A stretch of DNA of 64,000 nucleotides, taken from NCBI GenBank assembly GCA_030390025.1, contig CM059431.1, positions 157,916,001 to 157,980,000 of the forward strand. Reading direction: 5' to 3'. Positions 3,472-54,738 of the stretch are shown in pieces. Made by a program: the position numbers and the translations under genes. This DNA comes from Squalus acanthias. Taxonomy: Eukaryota. The notes under the pieces were generated by a model. That model was not told the origin of the DNA. It was given only the letters and a program-made list of their open reading frames with translations, and ran no database searches. The first letter of the stretch is position 1; each line of letters opens with the position of its first letter.

Positions 3472-4260
3472 CATATTTTCAATCTTTCCTTTTTCCTACA
3501 TTTACAGTTTCCCATATTTCCTGTTTCCTATGGTTACTGTTTCATGTTTTTTTTTCGTTTCATGTTTCCTGTTTCCTCTGTTTAAATTGTCTTATCTTTC
3601 CTCTTTCCTGTGGTAACTGTTTGTTAGTTTGTTCGTTTTCCTGTTTCCTGTTTTCTATATTTATAATGTCTCATGTTTCCTGTTTTCAATGTTTCATTTG
3701 TCCTATGTTTCCTGTTTCCTATATTTACTATTTCTTATATTTACCTTTGTTAATGCTTTCAATTTTGGCTTTTTCCTATGTTCCTGTTTTGCTATATTTC
3801 CTGTTTCGTTTGTTTCATGTTTCCTATATTTACGGTTTAAAATGTTAAATTTTTCTTATGTTTCCTTTTTTCTATGTTTACTCTTTCCTGTATTTCCTCT
3901 TACCAATATTTTCTGTTTCCCATGTGTCCTCTTTATTCTTTTTTTACTGATTCCAATTTTGCGTGTTTCCTATGCTTCTTTTTCCTATATTTACTGTTTC
4001 ATATGTTTCCTCTCTCCTATGTTTATTGTTTGTTTTGTTTCCTCTTTAATATTTTTCCTGTTTCCTCTGTTTGCTGTTTCGTATGGTTCCTGTTTCCTAT
4101 GATTCCTATGTTCAATGTGTCCTATGTTGTCTGTGTCCTATGTTCACCGTTTCAAATATTTTATGTTTCTTATGACTACGTTTTCCTTGTTTATTTTTTT
4201 TCTTATGCTCCCTCTATCTTAGGTTTAGGATTTTTCATGTTACCTATTTCTTATGTTGAA
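3472..4260 (+). repeat. Same T-rich satellite array
   Basis: tgtttcct/atgtttact units. Confidence 0.95.
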
Positions 4261-16644: not shown

Positions 16645-18455
16645 CGTTTACTGATTTCTATGTTGAGAGTTTCCTTCGTTTACTTTTTCTTATATTTCCA
16701 TTTTACTCTGTTTACTGTTTCCTATGTTTCCGGTTTTCCATGTTTATTGTTTCCTATATTTACTATTTTCTATGTTTACTGTTCGCTATTTACTTGTTTC
16801 ATATATTTCCTGTTTCGTTGGTTTACTGTTTCTTATGTTACTTTTAACTATATTTCATGTGTCTTATATTTCCTGTTTCCTAAGTTTCATTTTCCAATGT
16901 GTAATATATCCTATGTTTATTGTTTTCCGTTTCCAATGTTTCCTGTTTCATGTTTCTTGTGTTTACTGTTTTCTATGTTTTTTCTTTCCAATGTTTACTC
17001 TTTCCGATGTTTCACCTTTCCTATGTTTCATATTTCCTGTTTACTCTTTCCTATGTTTCCTCTATCCTATGTTTATTGTTTCCTTTTCTGTGGTTCCTAT
17101 GTTTCCTGTTTCCCACGGTTCCTCTTTCCTATGTTGACTGTTCCTTATGTTTACTGTTAACAGCATTTCCTGTGTCTAATCTTTGCTATTTGCTATATTT
17201 GCTATTTCCCATGTTTACAGTTTCCTATGTTTACTATTCTCTATGTTTCTTATGATTTCCCTTTCCTATGTTTACTATTTCTACTGCTTCCTCTTTCCTG
17301 TTTCCTATCTTTACTATTTCCTAGATTAACTGTTCCATATGTTTACTGTTCCATATATTTCCTCTTTCCTATATTTCCGCTTTCCTATGTTTACTGTTCC
17401 ATATGTTTAATGTTTCCAAAGTTACAATTTCCTGTTTCCTATATTTACTCTTTCCTATTTTTCAGCTTTCCAATGTGTCGTCTTTTCTATGTTTAATCTT
17501 TCCTATGATTACTGTTTACTGTTTCCTATCTTCACTGTTTCTTATTTTTAATGTTTACGATCGCCCGTATCTTTTTATATTTATTTTTGCCTATGTTTCC
17601 TTTTCCCATGTTTCCTATTTTCTTTGATGCGGCGATGCCGGTGTTGGACAGTGGTGGACAAAAGTGAGAAGTCGCACAACACCAGGTTATAGTCCAACAG
17701 TTTTATTTGAAATCACAAGCTTTCAGAGCGCTGCCCCTTTGTCAGCAGCGCCGAAAGCTTGTGATTTCAAGTAAAACTGTTGGACTATAACCTGGTGTTG
17801 TGCGACTTCCCTATTTTCTTTGTTTCATGTATGCTATATTTCCTGTTTCCTATATTTACTGTTTCCGATGGTTACTATTTGTTATGTTTTGTTATTCTGA
17901 TATTTACTGCTTCCTAAGTTATTGTTTCCTATGATTCGTGTTTCCTATGATTCTTTTTTCCTATGCTTACATTTTCCTATGTTTTATATTTCATGTTTCC
18001 TATTTACTGCTTCCTGTATAATATTTTTCCTGATTCATAAGTTCCAGGTTTCCTATGTTTACTCTATCTTATGTTTCCTTTTCCCTCAGTTTCATATGTC
18101 CTGTTTACTATTTTTTCAGTTTTGTCTGCTTAATATTTCGTTTTTTTACTATTTCCTATGTTTCCTTGTTCCTCTTCTCTATATTTACTGTGTCCTATGT
18201 TTACTGTTTCTTATGTTTCATATTTTCTATTTTTACTGTTTCTTATCAAACAATCATGAAAATTTACGCCACGGAAGGAGGCTATTGTGTCTGTACAATT
18301 TTTCCTGTTGCTTCTTTTTACGGTTTACTATGTTTACTGTTTAATATGTGTACTGTTTCCTATATTTACTATTTCTTATTTTTTCCTATTTCCTTTGTTT
18401 CCCGTTTCTTATGTTTCCTGATCCTGATATTTCCTGGTTGCTATGTGTCATGTTT
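16645..18455 (+). repeat. Same T-rich satellite array
   Basis: tttcctatgtttactg units. Confidence 0.95.
17626..17809 (-). mobile_element. Short fold-back Penelope-like element (same family as 2113-2828)
   Basis: Inverted arms 17668-~17724 / ~17752-17809, unpaired tail 17626-17667, TSD cctattttctttg at 17614 and 17810. Confidence 0.8.
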
Positions 18456-19078: not shown

Positions 19079-19462
19079 CACTTTCGCGGGCTTTTCTTCA
19101 CAGGCTGTTGTCGGGAGCGACGAGACCGGAGGTGCTGTGAGGTGCTGTGAGTATTTGAACTCACTTTCGCGGGCTTTTCTTCACAGGCTGTTGTCGGGAG
19201 CGACGAGACCGGAGGTGCTGTGAGGTGCTGTGAGTATTTGAACTCACTTTCGCGGGCTTTTCTTCACAGGCTGTTGTCGGGAGCGACGAGACCGGAGGTG
19301 CTGTGAGGTGCTGTGAGTATTTGAACTCACTTTCGCGGGCTTTTCTTCACAGGCTGTTGTCGGGAGCGACGAGACCGGAGGTGCTGTGAGGTGCTGTGAG
19401 TATTTGAACTCACTTTCGCGGGCTTTTCTTCACAGGCTGTTGTCGGGAGCGACGAGACCGGA
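19079..19462 (+). repeat. 83-bp perfect tandem repeat (4 full units plus 1 partial) forming the CR1 5' UTR
   Basis: ctttcgcggg at 19081, 19164, 19247, 19330 and 19413; units appear identical. Confidence 0.97.
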
Positions 19463-27080: not shown

Positions 27081-27099
27081 TTTGTGTGTGTGTGTGTCT

Positions 27100-27705
27100 G
27101 TTCCCTATATTTATTTTTCCTATGTTTCTTCTTTCACATTTTAACGGTTTCCTATGTTTCCTCTTTTCTATGTTTTCTGATTCTAATATTTTTGGTTTCT
27201 TATGTTTCCTGTTTCTTATGCATCCTGTTACCTATGTTTCCCCTATTTCCAGTTTGCTATCTGTACTTTTTCCTATGTTTCGCATTTCCTATGTTTCCTG
27301 TTTCTTATTTTTTTGTTTCCTATGTTGACTGCTTCCTCTGTCTCCTGTTTCCTTTGTTTATTCTTTCCTATATTTCCTGTTTCCTATATTTCCTGTTTCC
27401 TATATTTACTGTTTCCTACGTTTCCTGTTTTCTATGTTTCCTCTTTCCTGTATTTTCGCTTTCTTATATATTATGTTTCCTTAGTTTCCTGTTACCTATA
27501 TTTCCAGTTTGCTATGTTTCATGTTTCCTATGTTTCCTCTGTCCTATTCTTCCGGTTTCCTATGTACAGTTTCCTATGTTTCCACTTTACCATGTTTATT
27601 GTTTCCCATATTTAATTTCCCCAATTTTCCTATGTTCGATAGTTCCTGTTTCCTATGTTTACTCTTTCCTATATTTATGGTTTCCTATATTTCCTATTCC
27701 CTAAA
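27100..27705 (+). repeat. Same T-rich satellite array
   Basis: tttcctatgtttcctg units (also a short piece at 26611-26667). Confidence 0.95.
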
Positions 27706-30706: not shown

Positions 30707-32824
30707 ATCATATTAGGTATAGTAGGCTTTATAACTATTTAAGACTCAAGAAAGATGGCAGGGCAGGTGATGTGTTGCGACTGCATTATGTGGGAGCACC
30801 TGGACGTCAGTGTGATCTAGGACAAACATGTCCGCGGTAAGTGTCTGCGGCTTGAGGAGCTTCGGCTCAGTGTTGATGAGCTGGAGGCTGAGTTGCGGAC
30901 ACTGCGATTCATCAGGGAGGGAGAAAGTTACTTGGACACTTTATTCCAGGAGGCAGTCACATCCTAAGGATAGGGTCCTCTGATTTGGTCAGTGGTTAGG
31001 GGCAGGTGGATGTGACTGCGAGTGAGGCAGGTACGGGGACCCAGAGGTGGAGGAGCCTCAGAATTTTCAATTGTGCAATAGGTTTGACGTTCTTGCGTCC
31101 TGTATGAATGAAAGCGGTGGCTGCAGGGTGCCAGGGTTCGGGACATCTGCTCTGGGCTGGAGAGGAACTTGCAGTGGGAGGGTGAGGAGCCAGGGGTCTT
31201 GGTCCATGTAGGTACAAACGACATAGGTAGAACTAGGAAAGAAATTCTGCTAAGACAGTATGAGCAGCTAGTGGCTAAATTAAAAAGCAGAACCTCAAGT
31301 GTTATAATGTCTGCATTATTACCTGAGCCACGAGCAAATTGGCATAGGGTAAATAGAATTAGAGCGATGAATGCGTGGCTCAAAGTCTGGTGTGGGAGAA
31401 ATGGGTTTCAATTCCTGGGGCACTGGCACCAGTACTGGGTAAAGTGGGATCTGTATCGTTGGGACGGTCTTCACTTGAACCGTGCTGGGACCAGTGTTCT
31501 GGCGAGTCGTATAACTAGGGCGGTAGAGAGGGCGTTAAACTAAATACTGGGGGGATGGGATCAAATTTGGGAAGATGTGGTAATTGCGAGTCAGCAGAGA
31601 GTGTTGTGAGTTTGGGTAAGTGTGAGAGTTCTTCAATTGTTAGTTCTCTTTAAAACATTCTTGATAAGAGTACTTAAGCAGTTTAAGTGAAGGGGAAAAG
31701 TTAAATATTTGGGATTCTGTTGGTTTAAGAAGAGTAAAACAAGGTTACACTGCAGTAGGAGTAAATTGGCACAGCAGGCAGTGGAAACCAGTTTGACTGA
31801 GTGCAAGTCAGCAGAGGCTGCTGTGAGTGTGGCTGCCTCATCAGCCAGCAGAAGGGGAGTGAGGAGAGCCGCAACAGCAGAGTGGTGGTCTCATTGACCA
31901 GGGAGAGGAGGAGGAACCAGACTGCAGACCACCACCAACAAAAGCACTACAACTGAGGTGCCTGGAGAGAGAGGACAGGAGAGGAGAAGGAGAAAGAAAG
32001 GAAGGCCAAGACCAACACCAGAGGAGGAGAGGCCTTTCCACACTGCCTCCCCAATTGGCCTCCATTTCAGGAGAGGGAGAGAGGGGAGAAAACAGCACCA
32101 GCAACCATCATCTGCTTGGAAGGAGGGAGGAAGAAAACATCTATATCTACATGTGGGTGTTATTTTGGTGCACTCTCCCAGAGACTTTAATTTGCAGGTG
32201 GGGGGAGGAAAGAAGAAAAGAAGAGGGCCGGAATATCCAAGGTGTGTGTGTGTGTGTGTGGCTTTTGAAAGAACTAGGCCGCACACACCACTAATTAAAC
32301 ACCCCTTCCCATTGCCTGACCTGGGACAGCTGGAGCTGCCGAAGTGAAGTCCCCAATTCATTTTCATCTGATTGGGCATCGTTAAGACCTGGTGCAGGAC
32401 TGAGCCTGGGCATCTCCAGCTTTCCCAGGTGAAGACATCTTCTCCCCCCACCAGAAGACCACCAAAAAAAATACTTTAATTTACATCGGAGAGTGCACCC
32501 CCTGCCAACACCCACCCACCCACCATCCTGAGTGGCGACCCTGCCCTTGCGGCTTCCCTCCTTCCCACCACCTCTCTCTCTCTCTTTGTCTCTTGTCTCT
32601 CTCTGCCTCTCTCTCTAAGAGGCACCTCAATTTACTTTTATTAATTGCCCATTGAGCAGAGGGGAGAAGGCCCCTCTCCTAATTAATTCAAATAAAGGGA
32701 GAGGTGTGCCTTCAAATTAACAGCTCCCTCTGCTCAGGGGTAAAAAAAAAAACAACTACCGAGGCCATTAACACCGTCAGGCCTGTGACTTGGGGTGAGT
32801 GTAGCCCTTAAAGACCCACCCATT

Positions 32825-34989
32825 ATGGCGACCACATCTTCGTCGGTGGCGGGGGCAGCGAGGACGTATGCGAGCGTGGCAGCCGGGGCCACGGCCGCAG
32901 CCACGAATCCTCCTGTTAGCCCTTCACCTTTTACCCCCCTTACGAGGAAGAATGGGGTCAAGAGCTACACTCACCCCAACATGAGTATAGAGGCGTGTGT
33001 AAAAGCCATGGCTGGGGATGTCGGCCCTTCAGTCATCGTTGCCGCCTCTGAGATGTACGGCAAGGCTGTGTTCTTCCTGGGGTCGGAGCGGGCGAGTCCC
33101 TGGCCATTGACAAGGGGCTCACCGTGGGTGGGACCTTCCTGCCGGTGGACCCCCTTGAGGCCACCGCACAGAGGATTGTTATCTCCAACGTCCCGCCCTT
33201 TGTTCCGGGTGAGCTCCTCCTCCCCCACCTACGTCAACTGGGGGAGGTGAGGTCGGGGATCACACCCATCCCGCTCGGCTTCCGGGAAGCCAGCCTCCGG
33301 CATGTCTTCTCCTTCCGGCACCAGCTTTTCGTCCGGCTGGCGCGGGAGGAGGACACGGACGGCGCATTCACGGTGCTCCACGGGGGGACCGCCCATCGCG
33401 TCTTCTGGACCTCGGACGGCGTGCGGTGCTACGCCTGTAAGGAGATGGGGCACGCCCGGAAAAACTGCCCCGCCTCCAAGGCCGCCACAACATCCAGTGC
33501 GGCCAGGGCTGGCGCCGCCGCGCCCCCTCCCCATGATACTGTCCGCGCGTCAAGGACGACAGATGTGCAGTCGACGTCGGGGGCCAAAACCATCACGGCC
33601 TCCGGCGGGGGGGAGGGAGAGCGTCCGAGTGGAAGGAAGGCGTTGAAAAAGACAAAACTCCTCAGGGTGGGTCCCCTCGTGGAAGACACCACCGAACTAC
33701 CAGAACTCACGCCCCCGCTCCTCGCGGAGTTGAAGGGGACGCGCAAGGCTGGGGAGGGCCTCATGCCCGGGCCCGTGACCGCAACTGCCGAGGCAGATAA
33801 ATCAAGACCTGCGGCCGGGCTCGGGCCCGAGGGGCCCAAGAAACCCAGTCATCGGGAGGGGGCGGAGAGGGAGGCCCCAGCAAGACATGGAGGCATCCCC
33901 CTCTCCGGGCCCCAACACGTTAAAAAGGAGGCACGACCCCCAGGAGGAGCACAGTGAGGAGGAAGGTCCCTCCGCACAAGGGGAGTCGTCGCCCGCCGCG
34001 GGTGCTGCGCCCCACCCCACCACCGCCACCATCGCGATCGATCGGCAGGGGTCGCCTGTCCCTCGGGAGGGTGAGACAGCTGAGTCTGTCGGACCCGTGC
34101 CTCCCGGGGATGGGGAGGAGACCCTGCCCATGGGGGGGGGTCGCGGAACAACCCGCGGAACTAAATAGTAATAAAGAAGTGCCAGAACCGTTGCTCCTCG
34201 CCGGGTCGGGCGTCCTGGGGACTGGGGCGGGTGAGGACAAAGAGGCCGAAACTGAGCCCGCCCGTTACGACACAGACATCTCCCAGGGACTGCTCGACCT
34301 GGTGGAGGAGTGTAATAATCCCCAGCCCGCTGGGTCGGAGGCTGGTGGCGGGGAGACAGAAAGCCCCCATACTCAGTCTCTGACGTTGGCGCCGGACGTG
34401 CTGGAGGAACTGGGAATTGTTTTCTCCCCGATTTCTCCGGTCTCTCCGGCGCCTGAGGTGGAGGGGTGCCCTGAACCGCCGCCGCCTCCCGGCTCGGCGC
34501 CCCTGAAGGAGCCCAGGGAGGACTCCTCTGCCACCGATCCTGGGGGTGGATCGTGATAGAGGCGGGGCCGGCCGGTGCGGCCGAGCCGTTTGCTGCACCC
34601 CGTGTGACGGACGGGTCGGCCGCCGGTGACGACCTCCCAGAGGAGGACGGGACTCGGTGTTGGGCACTGAGGATGATGTGGAGTCCATCGGCAGTGAGAC
34701 GATGGACGCCCTCGTGCCCTTCACCGACTCTCCCCTCATCCCCGTAGGGAAACTCCGCTAGTTTATAGCCACGTGCCGGGGTCGTCATAATAAGATCCGG
34801 CTGGCCCTCGACAAGTGGTCGGAGCTGGCGCTGCTCGTCAGGTCCTTCCACGCCGCCGTTAAAATCATGGGCGTGGAGAAGGAAGTAAACCGGCCCGAGC
34901 TGCGTCGGCTCATGATGTTGCACACTGGGCTGCTGAGGGAGTGGCGGTCGTCAGTGACCGCGCTCCCTCCCCCCACCCCCGTTAGGTAG
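32825..34989 (+). pseudogene. Tx1 ORF1 (gag-like, zinc knuckle), disrupted
   Basis: RIVISNVPPFVP, CYACKEMGHARKNC; frameshifts across ORFs 32795, 33124 and 33887. Confidence 0.8.
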
Positions 34990-35010
34990 AGGTTGCACTA
35001 TGCTTCTGAG

Positions 35011-38000
35011 ATGAAGATAACCATAGCCAGCCTCAACATCAATGGCAGCAGGGAGGCGCGCCGTAGATTCAATAACTTCTCGGTCCTTTGGGAGGGAAAT
35101 ATGCGGTGTGCTTCCTGCAAGAAACCCACACCGTTCCGGGAGACGAGGCCACGTGGCTCCTGGAGTGGCAAGGAGGGGTCAGCATGAGTCACCTCTCCAA
35201 CAATTCCTGCGGGGTGGCCGTCTTGCTGGCCCCACATTTTCAGCCGGAGGTCTTGAGGGTCAAGGAGCACGTGCCGGGCCGCTTGCTCCAGGTCACTGTT
35301 CGCCTGGGAGGCGTGCCGCTCCATTTAGTGAACGTGTACGCCCCCCAGAACGGTGCACAGCAAGTGCGCTTCTTTGGAGAAGTGTCCGCTCTTCTGGGCT
35401 CCATCGACGTGGGCGAGTGCGTCATCTTCGGGGGAGATTTCAATTGTACCCTCGAGGCGCGGGTCCGGTCGGGTCCCCCGCAAAGCCCGGCGGCGATGGA
35501 GAAGTTGCAGGACCTGGTCGGGTCCTTCGACTTGGTGGACGTCTGGCGAAATCTCCTTCCCGACTCCAGCGCCTTCACGAGTGTGAGGTCTGGAGGAGGA
35601 AGGTCCAGAATCGACCGCCTTTACATTTCCCGGGCGTACGTCTCCTCTGTTCCGGCAGCTTCCATGCGGCCGCTGCCGTGCGCGGAACACCACCTGGTGT
35701 GGGCGGAGCTCGATCCGCTGCGCGCGCGGGGTGAGTCCGCGTACTGGAATTTTAACAATCTGCCGCTGGAGGACGCGCGGTTCCAGGATTCGTTCGCTGG
35801 TTCTGGGCCGACTGGAGAAGGAAGCGGGGAGGCTTCCCCTCCTTGAGGCTATGGTGTGACGTGGGCAAGGCTCACGTCCGCGTCTTCTGTCAGGAGTACG
35901 CGAAGGGGTCGACCAAGAGGCGGGAGGCCCGGGTCGGGCGATTGGAGAAAGAAGTGCTCGACCTGGAGTCCCGTCTCGGTCAAGTCGTCGAAGACCCGGC
36001 CCTGCGGAAGGTGTACGAAGAGAAGAACGGCGCGCTGAAGGACCTGCAGCTGGTCGGGTCCCGAGGTGCGTATGTGAGGTCACGGATCCAGTTCCTGCGG
36101 GACCTGGACCGTGTCTCCCCCTTCTTCTACACGCTGGAAAAAAGACGGGGGGTCCGTAAGCAGCTCTTGGGGCTGCTGGCCGACGACGGATCTCTGGTCT
36201 CGGATCTGGAGAGCATCAGCGCGGAGGCCCGGGCCTATTACGGGGCTCTGTTCTCTTCGGACCCGTCCAGCGAGGATGCACACAGAGTTTTGTGGGAGGA
36301 ACTGCCGAAGGTCGACCCGGAGTGCGCCGAGAATTTAGAAGCTCCGCTAAGCCTGGCGGAGCTGACCGGCGCTCTGCGCCAGCTCTCGAGGGGCAAGTCC
36401 CCGGGGCTGGATGGGCTGACCAGGAGTTCCACAGGGCGTTCTGGGACGTCTTGGGGTACGACAATGCGCGGGTAATGGGGGAACGTCTGGCGACCGGGGA
36501 GATGCACCTCTCTTGGCGCAGGGCGGTCATCGTCCTGCTGCCCAAGAAGGGCGATCTGTGCCTTCTTAAAAACTGGTGCCCGGTCTCCCTCCTCAGCACG
36601 GACTACAAAATTTTCACCAGAGCTATGTCTGCTCGCCTTGGCACCATACTGGCCCACATGATCCACCCCGACCAGTCCTACATGGTCCCGGGCCGGTCAA
36701 TCCACGACAACATCCACCTGGTCCGGGACATGGTCCACCATTCCCAGACGGCTGGTCTGTCGGTCGCCTTCCGTTCCCTGGATCAGGAGAAGGCGTTCGA
36801 CAGGGTGGATCACGAGTATCTTTTCGGGACTCTATGCGCATTCGGATTCGGGACGCATTTCGTCGCCCGGATCCGACTTCTGTACGCCGCCGCGGAGTGT
36901 CTGATTAATGTTAACGGGTCTTTGACGGCGCGACTTCACTTCGGGAGGGGGGTGCGTCGGGAATGCCCCATGTCCGGTCAGTTATACGCCATTTGCATGC
37001 AGCCTTTCCTGCGCCTCTTGCATAAGAGGTTGACGGGACTGGCTCTGCAAGGGCCGGGCATGTAGGTGGTCCTCTCGGCTTACGCCGATGACGTGCTCCT
37101 CGCATTCACGGATCCCGTCGACTTGCGGAGGATGCGAGAATGCCAGCAGATTTACTCGGACGCATCCTCCGCTAAGATCAACTGGGAGAAGTGCTCTGAA
37201 CTCCTGGTGCGCCCATGGCAGTTCGACTCCCTGCCGGAGGAGTTCAGGCCCTTCGCCTGGAGCACAACGCACCTCCTCTACCTGGGAGTCTACCTCAGCC
37301 CGGCCGAGGACGCCTGGCCGGCGAACTGGCAAGAGCTGGAGGCCAAAGTCACCGTTCGCCTAGGGCACTGGACAGGATTGCTCCGACTGTTGTCCTACAG
37401 GGGTCGGGCGCTGGTCATAAATCAGCTGGTGACCGCCATGTTGTGGTACCGGTTGGTCACTTTGATCCCTCCCCCTGCGTTTGTCGCCAAGATGCAGAAG
37501 AAGCTCGTCGACTTCTTCTGGGACAAAAGGAAGCACTGGGTCTCTGCCGCGGTTCTGAGTCTCCCGCTTAGGGAGGGCGGTCAGGCGCTGGTGTGCCTTC
37601 GCACCCAGGTGGCGACTTTCCATCTTCAGATGCTGCAGAGATGCCTGTACGTGGAGAATCCTCCTAGGTGGCATGCGCTGGCGACGTATTTCTTCCACCA
37701 GCTGCACGGCCTCAATTACGACACGCAGCTCCTGTTCGTGAGAGTGGGCGGCACGCGTGCCAGCCTGCAGGAGCTGCCTGTCTTCTACCAGGAACTGCTA
37801 TGGGTTTGGAACAGCGTCGCCTCCAGGTGCAGTTCTCCCCCGTCAGGAGCGGCGGCAGTCTTCGGGAGCCGCTGCTCAGGAATCCGCACCTCCACGACCG
37901 CGGGTTCGGCCGGCTGGCGGAGGGCAGGGCTGTGCCCGGTAAGGTGACTAGAGTCGGGGACCTGCTCGATGGAGGAGGAGCGGGCTGGATGGTGCCGGAG

Positions 38001-38908
38001 GAGTTGGCGAGGCGCATGTCTTGGATCAACGTCCGGCTCGTGGTCAAAGCCATCGAGTCGCTAAAAGTGGCACTGGGCCCCGACTCCACTAGGTGTATCG
38101 AGGAGGCTCGGGCATGTGGTGCGATCCCGTCCGAGCTGACCCCCGTTCGGACGGAATTACTTATCGGCGCCCGGCCCCGAATCCTCCCTCGGGAGCCGCC
38201 GCCTCACCACTTGAGCCTTCTCGGAGAAATGCCCCCTGTGCCCTTTCAACCCGCACGGAGGTGTTTCCTGTACGGGCTGCTCCTGCACGCTCTCCACTTT
38301 GCCATCTTCGTCTGCCGTCTGGACACGCCTTGGCGTACCAGCTTGCCATCCAGCGGAGGCGAAGGTCCCCAATGGAGGGCTCTCTGTCCGCGGGAGTCTT
38401 CCCTTGTTCTATTGGGGACTTGGCCTGGAGGGTGTTGCACGGAGCAGTCCCATGAAATAGATTGTTAAGTAGGTTTACGGACTCCCAGGCCGCTTGCCAT
38501 TTCTGTGGCCTGGAGGAGTTCGTGTTTCACATATATGTTGAGTGCGAGAGGTTGCAGCCCCTCTTTCATTACCTGAAGGGGCTGCTCCTCAATTTCTGGT
38601 TGCACTTCAGCCCCACGCTCCTGATCTACGGTCACCCGGTGCGGAGGGGAGCGGGCAGGTCGGAGGACCTCCTCGTGGGACTGCTGCTGGGCCTGGCTAA
38701 TAAAGCCATTAATTGGTCCAGGCAGCGGGCGGTCGAGGGGGTCGTTCGGCCCGATTGCCTGCCTCTCTTCCGCGGCCATGTTCACGCCCGGGTGGCCCTG
38801 GAGATGGAGCACGCGGTGTCTGCCGGCACGCTTGAGTTTTTCCGCGACCGGTTGGCGCCGCGGGGACTGGAGTGCATCGTCACCCCGGACTACCAAATTT
38901 TAATTTAA
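35011..38908 (+). pseudogene. Tx1 ORF2 (APE-RT-CCHC), disrupted
   Basis: Consecutive ORFs 35088, 35843, 36292, 37066, 37668 and 38462 carry colinear L1/Tx1 motifs. Confidence 0.9.
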
Positions 38909-39329
38909 TTTGTTAAGTTTCCTTTAAAGTTTTATTTAGTTACAGATAATTGATTGGTTTACATCAAAAGAGTAAGAAGAGTAAAACAAGGTTACACTGC
39001 AGTAGGAGTAAAGTGGCACAGCAGGCAGTGGAAACCAGTTTTCTAACCAATCAGCAGGGGGGACTCATTGTGGCTGTAAACAAACAATCAGTATAGAAAG
39101 ACCAGTGCGAGTGCGAACAAGCACTGAGTGCGAGTCAGCAGAGAGTGATGTGAGTTTGGGTAAGTGTGAGAGTTCTTTAATTGTTAGTTCTCTTTAAATC
39201 ATTCTTGGTAAAAGTACTTAAGCAGTTTAAGTGAAGGGGAAAAGTTAAATATTTGGGATTCCGTTGGTTTAAGAAGAGTAAAATAAGCTTACACTGCAGC
39301 AGGAGTAAATTGGCACAGCAGACAGTGGA

Positions 39330-39465
39330 AACCAGTTTTCTAACCAATCAGCAGGGGTGACTCATTTGGCTGTAAACAAACAAACAATATAAAAAGACCA
39401 GTGCTAGTGCGAGCAAGCACTGAGTGCGAGTCAGCAGAGAGTGCTGTGAGTTTGGGTAATTGTGA
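39330..39465 (+). promoter_or_regulatory. Putative Pol II promoter in the CR1-B monomer (CCAAT, TATA, leader, splice-donor-like GTGAGT/GTAA)
   Basis: aaccaatcag ~39342, tataaaaag ~39388; the element's 5' end corresponds to a point ~35 nt after the TATA motif (monomer start 39426). Confidence 0.45.
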
Positions 39466-39690
39466 GTTCGGGTGAGTGGGGTGCAGGGTGATCTTTTCAA
39501 ACTTTAACTCTGTGGGTTGTAGTTAATAAGGCATTTCGCGTGCAGAGTGACAGTTGGTAAACTATTTAACTGGTGTAATTTAGAGGGATTGATTTAATTT
39601 AAATCCAATTAATTAGAGGGGATACTAGCATCTATAATCGGGCAGAGAGTGTCCATAACTAACAATTAAAAATTTAATTAATTACATAGA

Positions 39691-40644
39691 ATGGAGCAGG
39701 TGATGTGTTACTGTTCCGAGATGTGGGAGTCGGTGGACCCCATTGAGGCTCACGGTGATTCCATCTGTGACAATTGTCTGCTGCTACAGGAACTCCAGCT
39801 CCGTGTTGATGAGCTGGAGTCTGAGCTTCAGACACTGCGACACATCAGGGAGGGGGAGAAGTACCTGGACACTGTGTTTCAGGAGGTGGTCACACATATG
39901 AAGTTAATTAATCCAGATGTAGCCCATGGTCAGGGACAGGACGGTGTGACTACGATTGAGGCAGGTACAGGGATCCAGGAGGTAGTGTTGGAGGAGCCGC
40001 AGCCCTTGCACTTGTCCAAAATGTTCGAGGTTATTACTCCCTGTGGGTACAGGAGCAGGGACTGCAGGGAGGATGAGCAACCTGGCCACAGCACCGTGGA
40101 ACGGAGGGCCATTCAAGAGGGGGGAGTAAATAGAAATGTTGTAGTGGTTGGGGATAGTATTATTAGGGGGATAGATAGAGTTCTCTGCAGCCGAGAGCAA
40201 GAGTCCCGTAGGCTGTGTTCCCTGCCCGGTGCCAGGGTTAAGGACATCTCCTCTGGGCTGGAAAGAAACTTGCAGTGGGAGGGGGTGGATCCAGTTGTCG
40301 TGGTCCATGTTTGTACAAACGACGTAGATAGGACAAGGAAGCCGGTTCTTTTAAAGGAATATGAGCAGCTAGGGGTCAAATTAAAAAACAGAACCTCAAG
40401 GGTAATAATCTCTGGGTTATTACCTGAGCCACGAGCGAATTTGGCTAGGACAAATAAAATTAGAGAGTTAAATGAGTGGCTCAAAGACTGGTGTGGGACT
40501 ATTGGATTTTGCTTCCTGGGACACTGGCACCAGTACTGGGGCTGGAGGGAGCTGTTCCGTTTGGACGAGCTTCACTTGGCCAGTGCTGGGACGAGAGTCC
40601 TGGCGGATCATATAACTAGGGCTGTAGAGAGGGATTTAAATTAA
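39691..40644 (+). CDS. CR1-B ORF1, open reading frame intact (zinc finger, coiled coil, SGNH esterase)
   Basis: MEQVMCYCSEMWE..ICDNC; GDSIIRG, HVCTND, DELH. Confidence 0.85.
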   Translation: MEQVMCYCSEMWESVDPIEAHGDSICDNCLLLQELQLRVDELESELQTLRHIREGEKYLDTVFQEVVTHMKLINPDVAHGQGQDGVTTIEAGTGIQEVVLEEPQPLHLSKMFEVITPCGYRSRDCREDEQPGHSTVERRAIQEGGVNRNVVVVGDSIIRGIDRVLCSREQESRRLCSLPGARVKDISSGLERNLQWEGVDPVVVVHVCTNDVDRTRKPVLLKEYEQLGVKLKNRTSRVIISGLLPEPRANLARTNKIRELNEWLKDWCGTIGFCFLGHWHQYWGWRELFRLDELHLASAGTRVLADHITRAVERDLN

Positions 40645-42960
40645 ATAGTGTGTGGGGGGGGGGGCGGTGGGGGAGGATCCTAGAGTGCAAATAATAAAAA
40701 TGACAACAGAGAAGGTCATAGAATTAGGTAGCAGTGGGGAAATTAAAAACCAGAGTGTGTCAGGAAGGGACAGAATGTATGGAGTAAAAGGTAAAGTAAT
40801 AAAAACGTCCAAAGCAGGAACTAAGTGTCACAAAAATTGTTTGAAAGTTCTCTATCTGAATGCACGTAGCATTCGTAACAAAACAGACGAGTTAATGGCA
40901 CAAATAACTACATATGGGTATGATCTTGTGGCCATTACAGAAACATAGCTGCAGGGTGACAATGCCTGGGAATTAAACATAACAGGTTATTTAACGATTA
41001 GGAAGGACAGGCAGGAAGGAAGGGGAGGTGGGGTGGCTATGTTAATAAAGGAAGGAATCACTGTAATACAGAGAAATGATATTGGGTCAAAAGATCAGGA
41101 TAATGAAACAGTTTGGGTGGAGATAAGGAATAATAAGGGGAAAAAGCATTCGTGGGCGTAGTCTATAGGCCTCCGAACAGTTGCAACTCTGTTGGACGGA
41201 GTATCAATCAGGAAAAAGTTGAGGGTTGTAATAAGGGAACATCTATAATTATGGGGGATTTTAACCATCATATTAATTGGACAAATCAAATTGGGCTTGA
41301 GGATGAGTTCATTGAGTGTATTAGGGATGGGTTTCTTGAGCAGTATGCAACTGAACCGACCAGGGGGTAAGCAACCTTAGATCTGGTCCTGTGTAACGAG
41401 ACAGGATAAATAAAAAATGTCCTAGTAAAGGATACCCTTGAAATGAGTAACCATAACATGGTTGAATTCCATATTCAATTAGAGGGTGAGAAGATTGGAT
41501 CTCAAACAAGCGTGCTAAGCTTGAATAAAGGAGACTATGAAGGTATGCCAGCGGAATTGAGTAGAGTGGATTGGGAAAATAGATTAAAGGGTAAGACGGT
41601 ACATGAAGTGCTGTACATTTAAGGAGTTATTTTACAACTTCCAAAAAATATATATTCCACTGAGAAGAAAAGGGTGTAAAAGAAAAGACAGTCATCCGTG
41701 GCTAAGTAAAGAAGTTAAGGATAGCATTCGACTAAAAACAATGCCATATAAGGTAACCAAATCCAGTGGGAGGAGAGAGGATTGGGAAAACTTTAAAAGA
41801 CAGCAAAAAATAACAAAAAGTTTGATTAAGAAAGGGAAGATAGATTATGAAAGTAAATTAGCAAAAAATATAAAAACAGATAGTCAGAGATTTTATAGTT
41901 ATATAAAAAGAAAAAGGGTGGCTAAAGTAAATGTTGGTCCCTTAGAGGATGAGACCTGGAAATTAATGGTTGGAAATATGAAGATGGCAAATACACTGAA
42001 TGAATATTCTGTATCAGTCTTTACAGTAGCGGACACTAAGGATATCCCAACACTGGACAAACAGGGGGCTATAGGGGGAGAGGAGCTAAACAAAATCAAA
42101 ATCACTAACGAAGTGGTACTCGGTAAAATAATGGGACTCAAGGCGGATAAATCACGTGGACCTGATGACTTACATCCTAGGGTCTTGAGGTAAGTGTCGG
42201 TAGGGATTGTGGATGCATTGGTAATAATTTTCTAAAACTCCCTGGACTCAGCAAAGATCCCGGCAGACTGGATAACTGCGAAAGTAACAGCCTTATTTAA
42301 AAAGGGCAGTAGACAGAAGGATGGAAACTATAGACCGGTTAGCCTAACATCTGTGGTAGGTAAAATTTTGGAGTCCATTATTAAGGAGACCGGAACCGGA
42401 ATTTTGGATAATCATAATTTAATAGGACATAGTCAGCATGGTTTTATAATGTTTGACAAATTCGCTGGTGTTCTTTGAGGAAGTAACATACAGGGTGGAT
42501 AAAGGGGAACCAGTGGATGTGGTGTATTTAGAATTCCAAAAGGCATTTGACAAGTTGCCACACAAAAGGTTATTGCTTAAGATAAAAAATCACGGGATTG
42601 GGGTTAATATTCTGGCATGGATAGAGGATTGGCTATCTAACAGAAGGCAGAGTGTTGGGATAAATGGTTCATTCTCAGACTGGCAATCAGTAACTAATGG
42701 TGTTCTGCAGGGGTCACTGCTGGGTCCCCAACTCTTTGCAATCTATATTAACGATTTGGAGGAGGGGACCGACTGTAACATATCAAAGTTTGCAGATGAT
42801 ACTAAGATGAGAGGGAAAGTAGTGAGTGAGGAGGACATAAAAAATCTGCAAGGGGACATAGACAGGCTAAGTAAGTGGGCAGAGATTTGGCAGATGGAAT
42901 ACAATACTGCAAAGTGTGAGGTAATGCACTTTGGCAGGAAAAATAGTAGATCAAGTTATT

Positions 42961-43723
42961 GGCCCGAAAATTAGACCTAATACGCGAGAGTACCCACTGT
43001 GTACTCTCGCATATTAGTTCCAGAATTGCCGGTTTCTTGCATGCACTGCGCAAGCGCGGGAAACCGGCACTTCGTGAATTGCAAAGGGGGCGGTTCCAAA
43101 GTGAACCGCGTGCGCACTACAGTTTGTGCGCACGCAGTGCACTTAGTTTTTTGTTCAGGTTTGAACGCGCAGGTAAGTGTTGAAGATTTTACACATAAAG
43201 AAAGCAGGCGTAGGCACCCCTTTTAATAAGGTAAGTAGTTAATTAAGCGTTATTTTAAAAAAAATCAACAGGTTTATCTTTTTTAGAGATTTTAAAGAAA
43301 GATAAGTTTATTTTTATAACTTTTAAAAAGATTTTTAATTTTTTCAAAAATTTAATTTTTTGTTTAAAGTGGTTAATTTATTTAACTATAGTTATTTTAT
43401 TAATGTGACAGCTTTTTTAAAAATTTAATTGAGGTTTAGGTGTTCTTTTGGGGGCTTGTAGTATTCATAGCTTTGACAGCACTTGCTGTCAAAACTATGA
43501 ATGAAAGATGGTGCGCTGCCATTGGCTCTAACTGAATCACGTGATCCCAGAGCTCGCACGAACTAATTGCGCCTCTGGGACATGCAATCACTGCACGCTG
43601 GCAACAGGGAGAGGCCCAGAAACTGAAGTTCGTGTGGGCCCGAAACAAAAATGTAGGCGCGGAGTGCGATATCGCAGGGAATCCTTACCCCCGTGGGAAC
43701 CATCGATGTTTAATTTTTGGGCC
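42961..43723. mobile_element. PIF/Harbinger-like MITE
   Basis: TIRs ggcccgaaaatta / taatttttgggcc, 3-bp TSD ATT within CR1 agttattatct; internal hairpin 43463-43502. Confidence 0.8.
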
Positions 43724-46700
43724 ATTATCTAAATGGCAAGAATCTGGAATGTACTGAAGTACAAAGGGATCTGGGGGTCCTGGTGCACGAAACTCAAAAG
43801 GTTAGTATGCAGGTGCAGCAAGTGATTAAGAAGGCCAACTGAATGTTGGCTTTAATTGCTAAGGGGATAGAATATAAAAAATAGGGAGGTATTGCTTCAG
43901 TTGTACAAGGTATTGGTGAGACCGCACCTGGAATACTGCATACATTTTTGGTGTCCATACTTAAGAAAAGACATACTTGCTCTCGAGTCAGTACAAAGAA
44001 GGTTCGCTCGGTTAATCCCGGGGATGAGGGGATGAACATATGAGAAGAGGTTGGGTAGATTGGGACTCTACTCATTGGAGTTCAGAAGAATGAGAGGTGA
44101 TCTTATTGAAACATATAAGATTGTGAAGGGGTTGGATCGGGTGTATGATGGGAGGATGTTCCCGATGATGGGTGAAACTAGAACTAGGGGGCATAGTCTT
44201 TGAATAAGGGGCTGCTCTATCAAAACTGAGATGAGAAGCAACTACTTCACTCAGAGGGTGGTAGGTCCATGGAATATGGTGCCCCAAAATGCTGTAGAAG
44301 CTACATCATTACATAAATTTAAAACAGAAATAGACAGTTTCCTAGAAGTAAAGGGAATTAAGGGTTACGGGGAGAGGGCAAGAATTTGGACACGAGTCTA
44401 GGTTCGGATCGGTCATGGCCCTGTGGGTAGCGTAGCGGGCCCAGGCGCCGTGTAGCCTGATCCTACTCCTATTTCGTGTGTCCAATTCTGTTAGGTTCAG
44501 GAGATGGTTCTGTGATAGTAGATTGGCGGTTAGGATCAGATCAGCCATGATCTTATTGAATGGCGGAGCAGGCTCGAGGGGCCAATTGGCCTAATCCTGC
44601 TCCTATTTCTAATAATTCAAAGATTAGAGACACGGCAATAGAGAAAGGTATTAATATTAGAAATGATAAGTAGAGCGTGACAGGAAGGGATAGGGTGTAC
44701 AAATGTAAGATTAAATCAACAGATAACGCTAGAGGTTACAAAAATAATAAAAGAACAAAACTAAAGTCTCTGCCTTTGAATGCACGTAGCATTCAAAACA
44801 AAACAGATGAACCGATAGCGCAAATAAAAATAAATAAATATGATCTGATAGACATTACAGAAACATGGCTGCAGGATGACATAAATTGGGACCTGAATAT
44901 TGAAGGGTACATGTCATTTAGGAAGGACAGGAAGGTGGGAAAAGGTGGAGGGGTGGCCCTGTTATTTAATTATGGTATTAGAACAATAGAGAGGGATGAC
45001 CTAAGTTCAGGAAACGAGGATGGAGTAGCGCTTTGGGTAATGATGAGAAATAATAAATGCAAGAAGTCAATTGTGGGAGTGCTGTTCAGGCCCCCTAACA
45101 GTAACCACATGGTAGGATGGAGTATAAAGGACGAAGTAATGGGAGCTTGTCAGAACGGTACGGCAATAATCATGGGGGATTTTAAACTGCATATAGACTG
45201 GAAAAATCAGATGGCCAAAGGTAGCATAGATGAGGAGATCTTGGAATGTTTTCAGGATAATTTCTTACAACAGCACGTTTTGGAGAAAACCAGAGAGCAG
45301 GCTATACTAGACCTGGAATTGTGCAACGAGATAGGATTAATTAATGACCTCATAGTGAAGGCGTCCCTAGGTAGCAGCGATCATAATATGATTGTATTTT
45401 ATGTTCAGTTTGAGAGAGAGATGAGTGGGTCCAAGACTAGTAATTTAAACTTAAATAAGGGCAATTATGAGGGCATGAAAGCAAAGCTAGCTAAAGTGAA
45501 CTGGCAAATTATGTTAAGGGATAGTTCAATAGAGTTGCAGTGGCAGACATTTAAGGGGATATTTCAAAATACACAGAATATATACATTCCAACAAGAAAG
45601 AAAAATTCCAAGGGGTGGATAACTAAAAAAGTTAAAGATAGTATTAAATTAAAGCAAAAGCATATAATTGCGCAAAGATGTGTAGCAGGTCAGAAGATTG
45701 GACAGAATATAAAAAACAGCAAATAATTACTAAAAGATTAATAAGGAGAGAAAAATTAGAGTACGAGAGAAAGCTAGCTAGAAATATAAAAACCGATAGT
45801 AAGAGTTTAAACAGATATTTTAAAAAGACAAATTAACAAAGTCAGCGTTCGTCCAATAAAATGTGAGTCTGGGGAATTAATAATGGGACATAAGGAGATG
45901 GCAGTTGAATTGAACAGGTATTTTTTCATCGTTCTTCACAATAGAGGATACAAGTAACATCCCAGAAATAGCTGTAAATCAGGAAATGGAAGGGAGGGAG
46001 AAACTCAAGAAAATAATAATAATAACCGCAAGTGGTACTGAGCAAATTGTTGGAGCTGCGGGCTGACAAGTCCCCGGGTCCTGATGGACTTCATCCTAGG
46101 GTCTTAAAATAAGTGGCTAGTGAGATATTTGATGCGTTGGTTTTAATTTTCCAAAATTCCCGAGATTCGTGGAAGGTTCCATTAGATTGGAAAATAGCGA
46201 ATGTAACCCCTTTATTTAAAAAGGGAGGGAGACAAAAAGCAGGAAGCTGCAGGCCAGTTAGCTTAACATTTGTCATAGGGAAGATTTTAAAAAGCTATTT
46301 TTAAAGATGTTATAACAGGGCACTTAGAAAGGTCCAAAGTAATCAGGCAGAGTCAGCATGGTTTTGTGCAAGGGAAATCATGGTTAAATAATTTATTGGA
46401 GTTCTTTGAGGAAGTGACAAGTGCTGTGGATAAAGGGGAACCGGCGGATGTACTGTACTTAGATTTCCAGAAGGCATTTGATAAGATGCCACATCAAAGG
46501 TTATTGTGGAAAATAAAATTTCATGGTGTAGGGGGTAACATATTGGCATGGATTGAAGATTGGCCAGCTAACAGGAAACAGAGAGTAGGCATAAATGGGT
46601 CATTTACTGATTGGCAAAATGTAACGAGCGGTGTGCCACAGGGATCAGTGCTGGGGCCTCAACTTTTTACAATTTATATAAATGACTTGGATGAAGGGAC

Positions 46701-48032: not shown

Positions 48033-48400
48033 ATGTTTCCCCTTTTACCTCATGTTCCATATGTTTCACGTTTTCTATGTTTCCTCTTTCCTATATTTAC
48101 GGTTTCATATATTGCATGTTGCCTATGTTTACTGTTTCCTATGGTTCCTTTTATCATTATTTACTGATTCCTCTATTTACTGTTTCATAACTTTCATGTT
48201 TCCCCAATTTCCTCCATCCTATATTTATGGGCTCCTATATTTCCTGTTTCTTACGTTTAATGTTTCCTATGTTTTCTCTTTACTATGGTTCCTGTTTCCT
48301 ATATTTCCTGTTTCATTTGTCTCTTCTTTCTTTTATTTACTGTTTCCTATGTTTAAAGTTTCCTGTATTTACGGTTGCCTATATTAATTTTTTCGAGGTT
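48033..48400 (+). repeat. Same T-rich satellite array
   Basis: tgtttcct/atgtttact units. Confidence 0.9.
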
Positions 48401-52905: not shown

Positions 52906-54738
52906 TTTTATGCTGTTTCCTTTATTTTGTTATCCTATATTACCTGTTACATTTGATTACTTTGTTTCCTCTTTTCTTTTTTAAAGTTTCTCATGTGTCC
53001 TTTTTCCAATGTTGTTTTTTTCCTATATTTGCTGTTTCCTATTTTCCTGTTTGCTATGTTTACTCTTTCTTGTGTTTCCTTTTTCATATTTCCTGTTTCC
53101 AAATTATTGATCCTTATGTTAACTTTTTCCAATGTTTACTAATTCTTATGTTTCCCAATTCCTATGTTGCCTTTTTCTTGTTTCCTGTTTCCTATGTTTA
53201 CTCTTCCTTATGTTTTTTGTTATTTGTATTTTATATTTCCAGAATTACTGTTTCTATGTTTCTTGTTTGCTATATTTACTGTTTCTTAAATGTCCTCTTT
53301 CCTACATTTTCTGTGTCTCTTGATTCCTATTTTTCGTCTTTGCAATGTTTACTGTTCACTATGATTCCTCTTTACTTTTTTGATGTTTCTTATGCTTCCT
53401 GTTTCCTATGTTTTTTGTTTCCTGTTGTTACTATTCCCTTTGTTTTCTCTTTCCTATTTCCTACATCTTTTTTAATGTGTCCTGTGTTTACTGGTTCTCA
53501 TGATGTCCGTCTCCAATGTGAAGTGTTTCATATGTTTATTGTTTCTTAGATTAATTATTCCTAAGTTTACTGTTTCCCATATTTACCGTTTCCCATGTTT
53601 AATGTTTTGTATGTTTAGTGTTTCCTATGTTTACTGTTTATGATTACTGTTTACTTTTTTACTGTTTCTTATTTTTCATATTTTCTATGTTTCCTGTTTC
53701 CTACATTTCCAGTTTCGCATATTCCTGTGTCCTATATTTCCTATATTTGCTGTTCCTTATGTTTCCTGTTTTCTTTTTTTTTGTTGTTTCCTGTATTTAC
53801 TTTATCCTATGATTCCTATTTCTTGTGTTTCCTGTTCCCTGTGTTTTCTTTTTCCAATATTTCATGTTTCCTAAATTTGCTTTTGCTAATATTTACTGTT
53901 TAATTTGTTTCCTTTTTCTTATGTTTCCTCATTCTTATGTTTATAATTTCTTATATTTTCTGGTCTTATGTTTCCTCTTTCCTTTTTTCTTGATTCCTAT
54001 GTTTATTCTTTCCTCTCTTTACTCTTGCTTATGTTTCCTGTTTCCCCTGTGTTCTCTTTCCTATATTTCCTGTTTCATAAGATTCCTGTTTCCTTGTATC
54101 CTCAGGATTTTACTGTTTCTCTTGTATCCTGTTTGCAATGTTGACTGTTTCCTATAGTTCCTGTTTTCTATGTTTCCTCTTTTCTTTTTTTTACTGTTTC
54201 TTATGTTTCACGTTTCTTATGTGCCTGCTTCTTAAATATTCTGTTTACTGTGTTTACTGTTTATTCTGTTTATTGTTTATAATGTTTTCTCTTTCCTACG
54301 TTTCATATGATTCCTGTGTCCTATATATAATGTTTCCTGTTTCATTAGTTTAATGTTTCCTTTGTTTACCGTTTCTTATATTTCATATTTTCAACGTATC
54401 CTGTTTACTACATTTCCACTTTATCATATTTCCTGTTTCCTATATTTCCTGTCGCGTATGTTTCCTGTGCATACATTTTCATTGACTTAATTATCCTGTT
54501 TCACATGCTTCATGTGTCGTATTTTTATTGTTTCTTATTTTAACTGCTCTTTATACTCCCTCTTCTTTTGCTATTTCCTGTATTTACTCTTTCTTATTTA
54601 TGCAGTTCCTTATGTTTCCTTTTTTTTGCAATTTCCTGTATTTTTGGTTTCCTATGTTTACTATTTCTTATGTTCCCGTTTCCTATGTTTCCTATTTACT
54701 ACATTGCCTGCTTCCCATATTTCATATTGCATAAATGT
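52906..54738 (+). repeat. Same T-rich satellite array
   Basis: tgtttcct/atgtttact units. Confidence 0.95.

Follow-up and report, generated by a model that had tools for sequence, protein, structure and literature searches.

A Tx1-clade retrotransposon in a CR1 5' monomer opens with the monomer's leader: a candidate trace of transcription from a flanking promoter

Retrotransposons of the Tx1 clade have been described with a wide range of targets. An excerpt of PMC4494074 names the piggyBac element Tx1D, Mariner-N4_AMi, Harbinger, LTR elements, U2, U5, 5S, satellites and microsatellites, and takes a Tx1 family to be target-specific when more than 20% of its flanks are of one type. The same excerpt treats SINEU-2B, whose 5' extension derives from a host Mariner copy, and it proposes transcription from flanking sequence. 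In SVA_F1 and pt_SVA_D6, subfamilies of 84 and 94 copies, a host-gene exon replaced part of the element, according to passages of PMC6139936. Co-transcription of R2 with its target leads to uniform 5' junctions (PMC3774820, in excerpt), and the 5' junctions of full-length L1 copies typically carry an extra G derived from the cap (PMC11702581, in excerpt).

The locus compared with these systems lies in a stretch of 64,000 nucleotides, the whole of which is called the window here. Three LINEs are nested in it, all on the + strand: a Tx1 element within a CR1-type element (CR1-B), and CR1-B within another (CR1-A), CR1 being the clade name that we take to apply to the hosts. Contigs of four out of 24 runs (X1, X6, X14 and X19) were compared with positions 31540–32240 at 85% likeness; X1 is from organism A (the best holder), X6 from organism B and X19 from organism G, these being organism labels and not by proof the window's species. 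CR1-A begins at ~30764, and its 5' part (30764–31584), found by tblastn with the ORF1 of CR1-B, holds a decayed esterase-type ORF1 and the inter-ORF region. It is broken at 31585 by CR1-B, which extends to ~44612, and it resumes at ~44613 judging from empty-site contigs: X14 and X6 contigs go from 31585 into sequence that by eye is 29/30 like 44618–44647.

The 5' end of CR1-B is built of monomers, in which a 37-nt leader is followed by a GT donor, ~180 bp, a CCAAT, a TATA box and the next leader. The element starts 7 bases into the leader of monomer 1, the left part of which (31585–31794) is 200/210 identical to 39129–39338 and has its GT donor at 31616, agreeing with the consensus at 7/9 positions. 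The rest of monomer 1 is found beyond the Tx1 element, at 38973–39122, where the right copy of the target duplication (to 39041) is followed by a CCAAT at 39047 and a TATA-like box at 39092. Monomer 2 is 296 bp long (39123–39418), with the leader at 39123–39159, the donor at 39160, a CCAAT at 39344 and TATAAAA at 39388. A third leader (39419–39455) and unique 5' UTR fill 39419–39690, with a weaker donor at 39456.

In both intact monomer ends the leader lies 31 bases 3' of the TATA box, and the sequence-only reading was right to place it just downstream of a TATA-like motif: TATAAAA starts at 39388, 31 bases 5' of the leader's first A at 39419. The start of CR1-B 7 bases into the leader is a second sign that transcription may begin there. 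The locus also hints that the CR1 monomers could act as TATA promoters from upstream, each driving the next and supplying a short leader that is spliced, and not as internal promoters. The stretch 39456–39691 of CR1-B looks intron-like, with a GT donor next to the leader, a branch-point-like motif at ~39657–39663 and an AG at 39688–39689, one base ahead of the context of the ORF1 ATG; in CR1-A there is an AG immediately 5' of the ORF1 ATG. If the 5' UTR of CR1-B is spliced, a spliced ORF1 mRNA would exist alongside an unspliced genomic RNA.

From 39691 to 44612 follow ORF1 (317 aa, open), an SGNH/GDSL esterase matching PF13472 and PDB 4C1B_A (E 2.4e-25), and a broken ORF2 up to the 3' tail. 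The ORF2 pieces are 63–78% identical to P0122, which falls in the non-Tx1 set of the RT tree. With an esterase ORF1, an APE-RT ORF2 and an RT apart from L1/Tx1, CR1-B would be classified by its sequence as a CR1-type LINE. Its ORF2 is interrupted at 42961–43722 by ~760 bp of other sequence, seen as a gap in tblastn. Another CR1-type copy carries 4.6 identical 83-bp monomers at 19079–19462, which have in common with the CR1-B leader an 11-base motif, and a second GT donor-like site forms part of it. By appearance this copy is much younger, and its ORF2 has an open stretch of 629 aa. A degenerate 16-bp tandem repeat is found in scattered blocks (534–1953, 3492–4146, 16669–18446, 27098–27703, 48055–48385 and 52993–54468), several of them immediately following CR1 3' ends, and the blocks are possibly expanded LINE tails.

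The Tx1 element (31795–38972) splits monomer 1 of CR1-B and is flanked by a duplication of 69 bp, of which the left copy (31726–31794) is 68/69 identical to the right one (38973–39041). The first nick would lie at ~31726/31727, and the duplication ends in the first run of at least three T downstream of it; that this run marks the second cut is speculation. The element opens with an extra G (31795) and a 37-nt copy of the CR1 leader (31796–31832). Its 5' UTR of ~1 kb (31830–32824) overlaps the leader end by 3–4 bases, the family 5' end being placed at ~31829–31830 from a joint in X6 contigs. The broken ORF1 (32825–34990, from the ATG at 32825 to an approximate end, by three-frame translation) has a CCHC knuckle, read by eye as CX2CX4HX4C near 33425–33470, a feature of Tx1-clade ORF1 proteins; Pfam gave no match in the three pieces of this ORF that were scanned. 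ORF2, likewise broken, is covered by five aligned pieces at 35012–38905 (start approximate) and has an APE endonuclease, an RT and a C-terminal Cys/His motif. The 3' end (38906–38972) is without poly(A).

Pfam identified PF03372 and PF00078 in ORF2. Its five tblastn pieces span residues 29–1292 of the 1308 of the Xenopus Tx1 ORF2 (P0022) at 34–55% identity, and the RT alone is 63% identical to P0022 over 258 aa. The RT tree was made from 21 of 240 listed homologues, with neither L1 proper nor named Keno or Kibi rows; in it the RT of the window element and P0022 belong to a set of 15 rows with support of 100/100, apart from 8 CR1-like rows, and the window RT is sister to a ray protein (96/90). 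Among named homologues the closest belong to rays and sharks, which makes a cartilaginous fish the probable host. The two ORFs, with APE and RT both in ORF2, and these comparisons of sequence place the element in the Tx1 clade.

There is no second Tx1 copy within the window. The CpG observed/expected ratio reaches 0.87 over the Tx1 ORF2 (35030–38900), against 0.42 in CR1-B (39691–42960), although the reading frame of the Tx1 copy is broken several times. At the 3' end (38966–38983) the last bases closely resemble 9 bases of the target, a repeat that matches better at the X6 3' junction, and this target-like tail may be either a priming aid or the result of priming slippage. Rfam gave 0 matches over 31000–40000 at E up to 1, so there is no self-cleaving ribozyme match at the Tx1 5' end. 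Folds of three stretches, covering the skipped stretch and the new 5' end, were no better than shuffles (z 0.77, -0.66 and 0.95). A bacterial promoter scan, a method not applicable here, found 2 where 1.7 were expected.

The match between the Tx1 start and the CR1 leader, earlier given as 33/37 over 31795–31833, is real. Positions 31796–31832 are 33/37 identical to the leader at 39419–39455 (BLASTN E 4.7e-7 within the window), with mismatches at 31805, 31817, 31818 and 31829, and 32/37 identical to the leader at 39123–39159, both without gaps; the outermost base on either side does not belong to the match, one being the extra G and the other lying past its end. The local score of the 37-mer against the monomer is 47; of 1412 36-mers taken as controls from the body of the Tx1, none scores above 26, and masking the monomers leaves 24 as the top score in the window. 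The copy extends from the predicted start to a splice donor, as its end coincides with the GT donor of the leaders (GT at 39160 and 39456). The G at 31795 is foreign to both sides, the target having T next and the leader context having C before it, and by analogy with L1 we infer that it is a copied cap.

One of the four differences from the leader at 39419–39455 is a CG-to-CA change, of the type that decay commonly produces once an element has inserted. At 31829 the base agrees neither with the end of the leader nor with the beginning of the X6 Tx1, and must then be a later change. It had been noted that the 37-mer is more diverged than the duplication, and this holds, but weakly. It has 4/37 mismatches to the leader at 39419–39455 and 5/37 to the adjacent target leader at 39123–39159, as compared to 1/69 in the duplication (Fisher p 0.049 and 0.019, respectively); against the monomer-to-monomer background of 10/210 mismatches, the probability of at least 4 in 37 is 0.098, and it is 0.26 when two neighbouring mismatches are counted as one event.

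The listing from the contig comparison covers 32 of 1445 pieces and, of the loose ends, 24 of 171; it also has 7 joints. Two X6 contigs join monomer position 31733 via one T to Tx1 position 31830; the shorter side of the join measures 49 letters, the summed depth is 105.4, and the 37-mer is absent from both contigs. The shallowest listed X6 contigs have depths of 2.2–6.6, and the difference is a weak hint at several copies, depth not being copy number. At another X6 junction the monomer continues to 31741 and is followed by sequence that by eye is 28/30 like Tx1 ORF2 at 38049–38078, apparently a 5'-truncated Tx1 at the same monomer site. At a third, a Tx1 3' end that by eye is 28/30 like 38943–38972 abuts 31726. 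The truncation junction and the 3' junction are 2 of the 6 listed X6 loose ends. The duplications implied at the X6 junctions are ~8 and ~16 bp, which is ordinary, as against 69 bp in the window.

Window and X6 together give three different 5' junctions and one common 3' junction at a single monomer site. From the window copy and the three X6 junctions, the Tx1 family seems to insert repeatedly at one site of the CR1 monomer, and sense insertion at a fixed monomer site is in part directly observed. The junctions outside the window are from one run with another organism label, with 1–2 contigs each, and each could be the deletion product of one locus; the four junctions come without a denominator for the share of Tx1 copies on target. 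The simplest reading is that the family 5' end probably lies near 31830, without the leader. The sequence-only reading had named absence of the 37-mer from other full-length Tx1 copies as the result that would speak against it, and the 37-mer is missing from the two X6 contigs of organism B. The X6 Tx1 without the 37-mer also speaks against the earlier idea of a leader element shared by both families. It does not follow, as had been proposed for the case that the 37-mer is missing elsewhere, that it is local target sequence.

In X1 the depth is 44121 over 31804–31827 and only 495 in the bin that follows, and one contig goes back from 31816 to 31607; because of this drop and this return, the depth over the 37-mer fits contigs of the CR1 leader, though a Tx1 sub-lineage with the leader may exist in organism A. 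One X1 contig stops exactly at 31794. Bins without cover (31804–31827 and 31828–31851 in X14, 31852–31875 in X19) were given no weight. Among the pieces, loose ends and joints listed, there is no bridge from 31796–31832 into 31833 onward. In X19 the summed depth is ~190,000–500,000 on the monomer (31588–31779) and far less on the Tx1 5' UTR, so that the monomer family is common to several organism labels, again with depth not read as copy number. X6 record 26, which starts at 31830, was rejected as a marker of the 5' end, since a variant at 31860 explains its start. Scans with exact patterns found nothing for the Tx1 5' end in viral and metagenome contigs, for the Tx1 3' end in metagenome contigs, or for the monomer in prokaryote genomes and viral contigs. 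A 16-base leader pattern occurred at 14 viral loci, all by chance (local scores 32–36, no real extension).

The account that we prefer, with a probability of roughly 0.5, is that a source Tx1 lying in a CR1 monomer was read from a CR1 promoter, and that splicing, or a jump over a 4-nt microhomology, removed the 118 nt separating the leader from Tx1. The Tx1-clade LINE would integrate in sense, and in the 296-bp 5' monomer it would use a single site, ~110 bases 3' of the leader and 5' of the next CCAAT/TATA unit. A Tx1 in a monomer with another monomer upstream would then be transcribed by the CR1 promoter, and as the usual junction lies 118 nt 3' of the donor, the RNA of an inner-monomer Tx1 would carry, in this order, the cap, the 37-nt leader, 118 nt from the monomer and the Tx1. 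After loss of the 118 nt, the RNA would be copied up to the cap, adding the extra G, and inserted into monomer 1 of CR1-B with the 69-bp duplication. We infer promoter activity, the start site, co-transcription and strict targeting throughout.

It is the predicted start site, the extra G and the end at the GT donor that point to a CR1-promoter RNA as the origin of the 37-mer, which most likely came with the Tx1 RNA, as had been suggested. The derivation of the 5' end from a CR1 promoter-driven transcript most likely holds for this copy; that the lineage acquired its own 5' end in this way does not agree with the X6 joint (31733–31830), and the 37-mer most likely marks this copy or a small sub-lineage and not the family. 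As to the loss of the 118 nt, there is no AG acceptor before 31833 in the window or at the X6 junction, where GG is found instead, so that plain splicing does not yield the observed join. Splicing to the two AGs just 5' of the X6 junction was rejected, as it would add 5 or 8 bases missing in the window. TTGG stands both at the end of the leader and at the beginning of the X6 Tx1, and a jump over this microhomology would require no acceptor; since TTGG occurs three times in 31585–31740, such a jump would meet the donor by coincidence in ~1 of 3 cases. Splicing and the TTGG jump are indistinguishable at this locus.

Several points count against the preferred account. A substitution, T to G or C to G, could account for the extra G, each X6 junction is from 1–2 contigs of a single run at 85% likeness, and the divergence argument fades against the monomer background (P 0.098). 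The account gives no explanation for the 69-bp duplication, and the Tx1 5' UTR may hold a candidate promoter of its own.

A wider version of the preferred account is conceivable, but we regard it as doubtful. The Tx1 family would be a promoter parasite that targets the intron-like part of the CR1 monomer and is, as a rule, transcribed from the upstream CR1 TATA promoter; the monomer on its RNA would restore the same 5' junction each time, in the manner of R2 in rDNA, and 7 kb would come to lie between the upstream CR1 promoter and the CR1 ORFs. The copy in the window would then be a rare shortened transcript exposing the borrowed start site. The parasitic relationship of one retrotransposon to another, which the sequence-only reading had proposed, is in itself supported.

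It is unlikely, though slightly less so than the other alternatives, that the leader was added in trans: the RT would have copied a full-length Tx1 RNA to its end and jumped via TTGG to a separate capped CR1 RNA, as a one-off event. The second template could be a free first exon or an unspliced CR1 transcript, copied to the cap, and no co-transcription would be required. Recurrent 5' additions to SINEU-2, with occasional short homology, and U1/U2 heads in some Tx1-Mar families are precedents in the excerpt of PMC4494074. A switch in trans accounts for the start site, the extra G, the end at the donor, which is where a free first exon would terminate, the single TTGG and the lack of an AG. Set against this, the family sits 118 nt 3' of the leader on one transcript, which makes a second RNA unnecessary, and free first exons are generally short-lived.

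An origin from local DNA is quite unlikely. The target duplication would have been ~187 bp (38973–39159) and joined by TTGG microhomology, its left copy later losing 81 bases and gaining the G, or the cDNA end would have copied the leader at 39123–39159 from the target DNA. The order of the pieces, 31726–31794 and then the leader, is the order of the target, the duplication is already long, the 4–5 mismatches in 37 are little beyond background, and microhomology is common at the 5' junctions of truncated insertions (PMC11702581, in excerpt). Such an origin requires a deletion or a stop exactly at the predicted start, together with the G, and DNA has no natural stop there. It would also place 5/37 and 1/69 mismatches inside one supposed duplication (p 0.019), and the other junctions imply duplications of 8–16 bp.

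To the same degree it is improbable that the CR1 leader is an inherited 5' end, carried by the whole Tx1 lineage or, in the species of the window, by a part of it. The four differences from the CR1 leader could then be family traits, the X1 depth is high over the 37-mer and is 495 over the join bin, which X1 rows beyond those listed could bridge, and SVA_F1 and pt_SVA_D6 offer a precedent (PMC6139936, in excerpt). The X6 contigs, however, pass from monomer to Tx1 without the 37-mer, nothing in the listed pieces, loose ends and joints links it to Tx1 from 31833 onward, and one of the differences is the decay-type CG-to-CA change. Chance resemblance is practically negligible in view of the E value and of the score compared to the 1412 controls.

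If the preferred account is right, the locus is a base-level trace of a flanking-promoter transcript, with its start, a cap-like G and a first exon; for target-specific Tx1 elements and their SINE partners, flanking promoters are proposed without direct data in the excerpt of PMC4494074. If targeting is strict, a LINE promoter would join the list of Tx1 targets, and an autonomous LINE would be living on another one and possibly damping it.

Compared to known systems, the fixed place in another transposon is shared with Xenopus laevis Tx1L (in the piggyBac Tx1D) and with the crocodilian Tx1-Mar, Tx1-8_Crp, Tx1-4_AMi and Tx1-9_AMi (PMC4494074, in excerpt). As in Tx1L, the RT is of the Tx1 clade, and the window RT is 61–63% identical to the Xenopus Tx1 ORF2. 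Contrary to those families, the target is a predicted LINE promoter monomer, which is not among the targets named in the excerpt of PMC4494074; the heads of Tx1-Mar are from U1/U2 (same excerpt), whereas the head in the window would be a capped leader of the target itself. The literature covered, including passages of PMC3747384 and PMC5135761, with most subscription journals and Repbase outside the search, has no Tx1 targeting a CR1 5' monomer.

SVA_F1 (MAST2 exon 1) and pt_SVA_D6 (STK40 exon 1) are similar in that a retrotransposon copy opens with a first exon ending at a splice donor, and for the chimpanzee pt_SVA_D6, too, reconstruction of the acceptor failed (PMC6139936, in excerpt). The window copy agrees with exon capture in that the acquired piece ends at a predicted GT donor (39160, 39456), and departs from it in that an AG acceptor is absent at the join. 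It differs from both SVA subfamilies in that the donor is the monomer of another LINE, which is also the insertion target, and in that the Tx1 5' end is nearly whole.

R2 encodes a restriction-like endonuclease. It is site-specific in a transcribed repeat, the 28S rRNA genes, is co-transcribed and has upstream target sequence on the 5' end of its RNA (PMC3774820, in excerpt), and the Tx1 element would be like it in these respects, co-transcription of Tx1 being our reading. R2 is transcribed by Pol I and has an HDV-like ribozyme (same excerpt), whereas the Tx1 element here has an APE endonuclease, a predicted Pol II-type promoter and no Rfam match. Template-switch chimeras such as U6-L1 likewise carry, within a single target duplication, a head from a different RNA that is joined through short homology (PMC4494074 and PMC11702581, in excerpt); unlike theirs, the head in the window is collinear with the target, 118 nt 5' of the usual junction, and one transcript is enough. 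Each ingredient has a precedent, and a CR1 promoter monomer as a Tx1 target, combined with capture of its leader, seems to be new.
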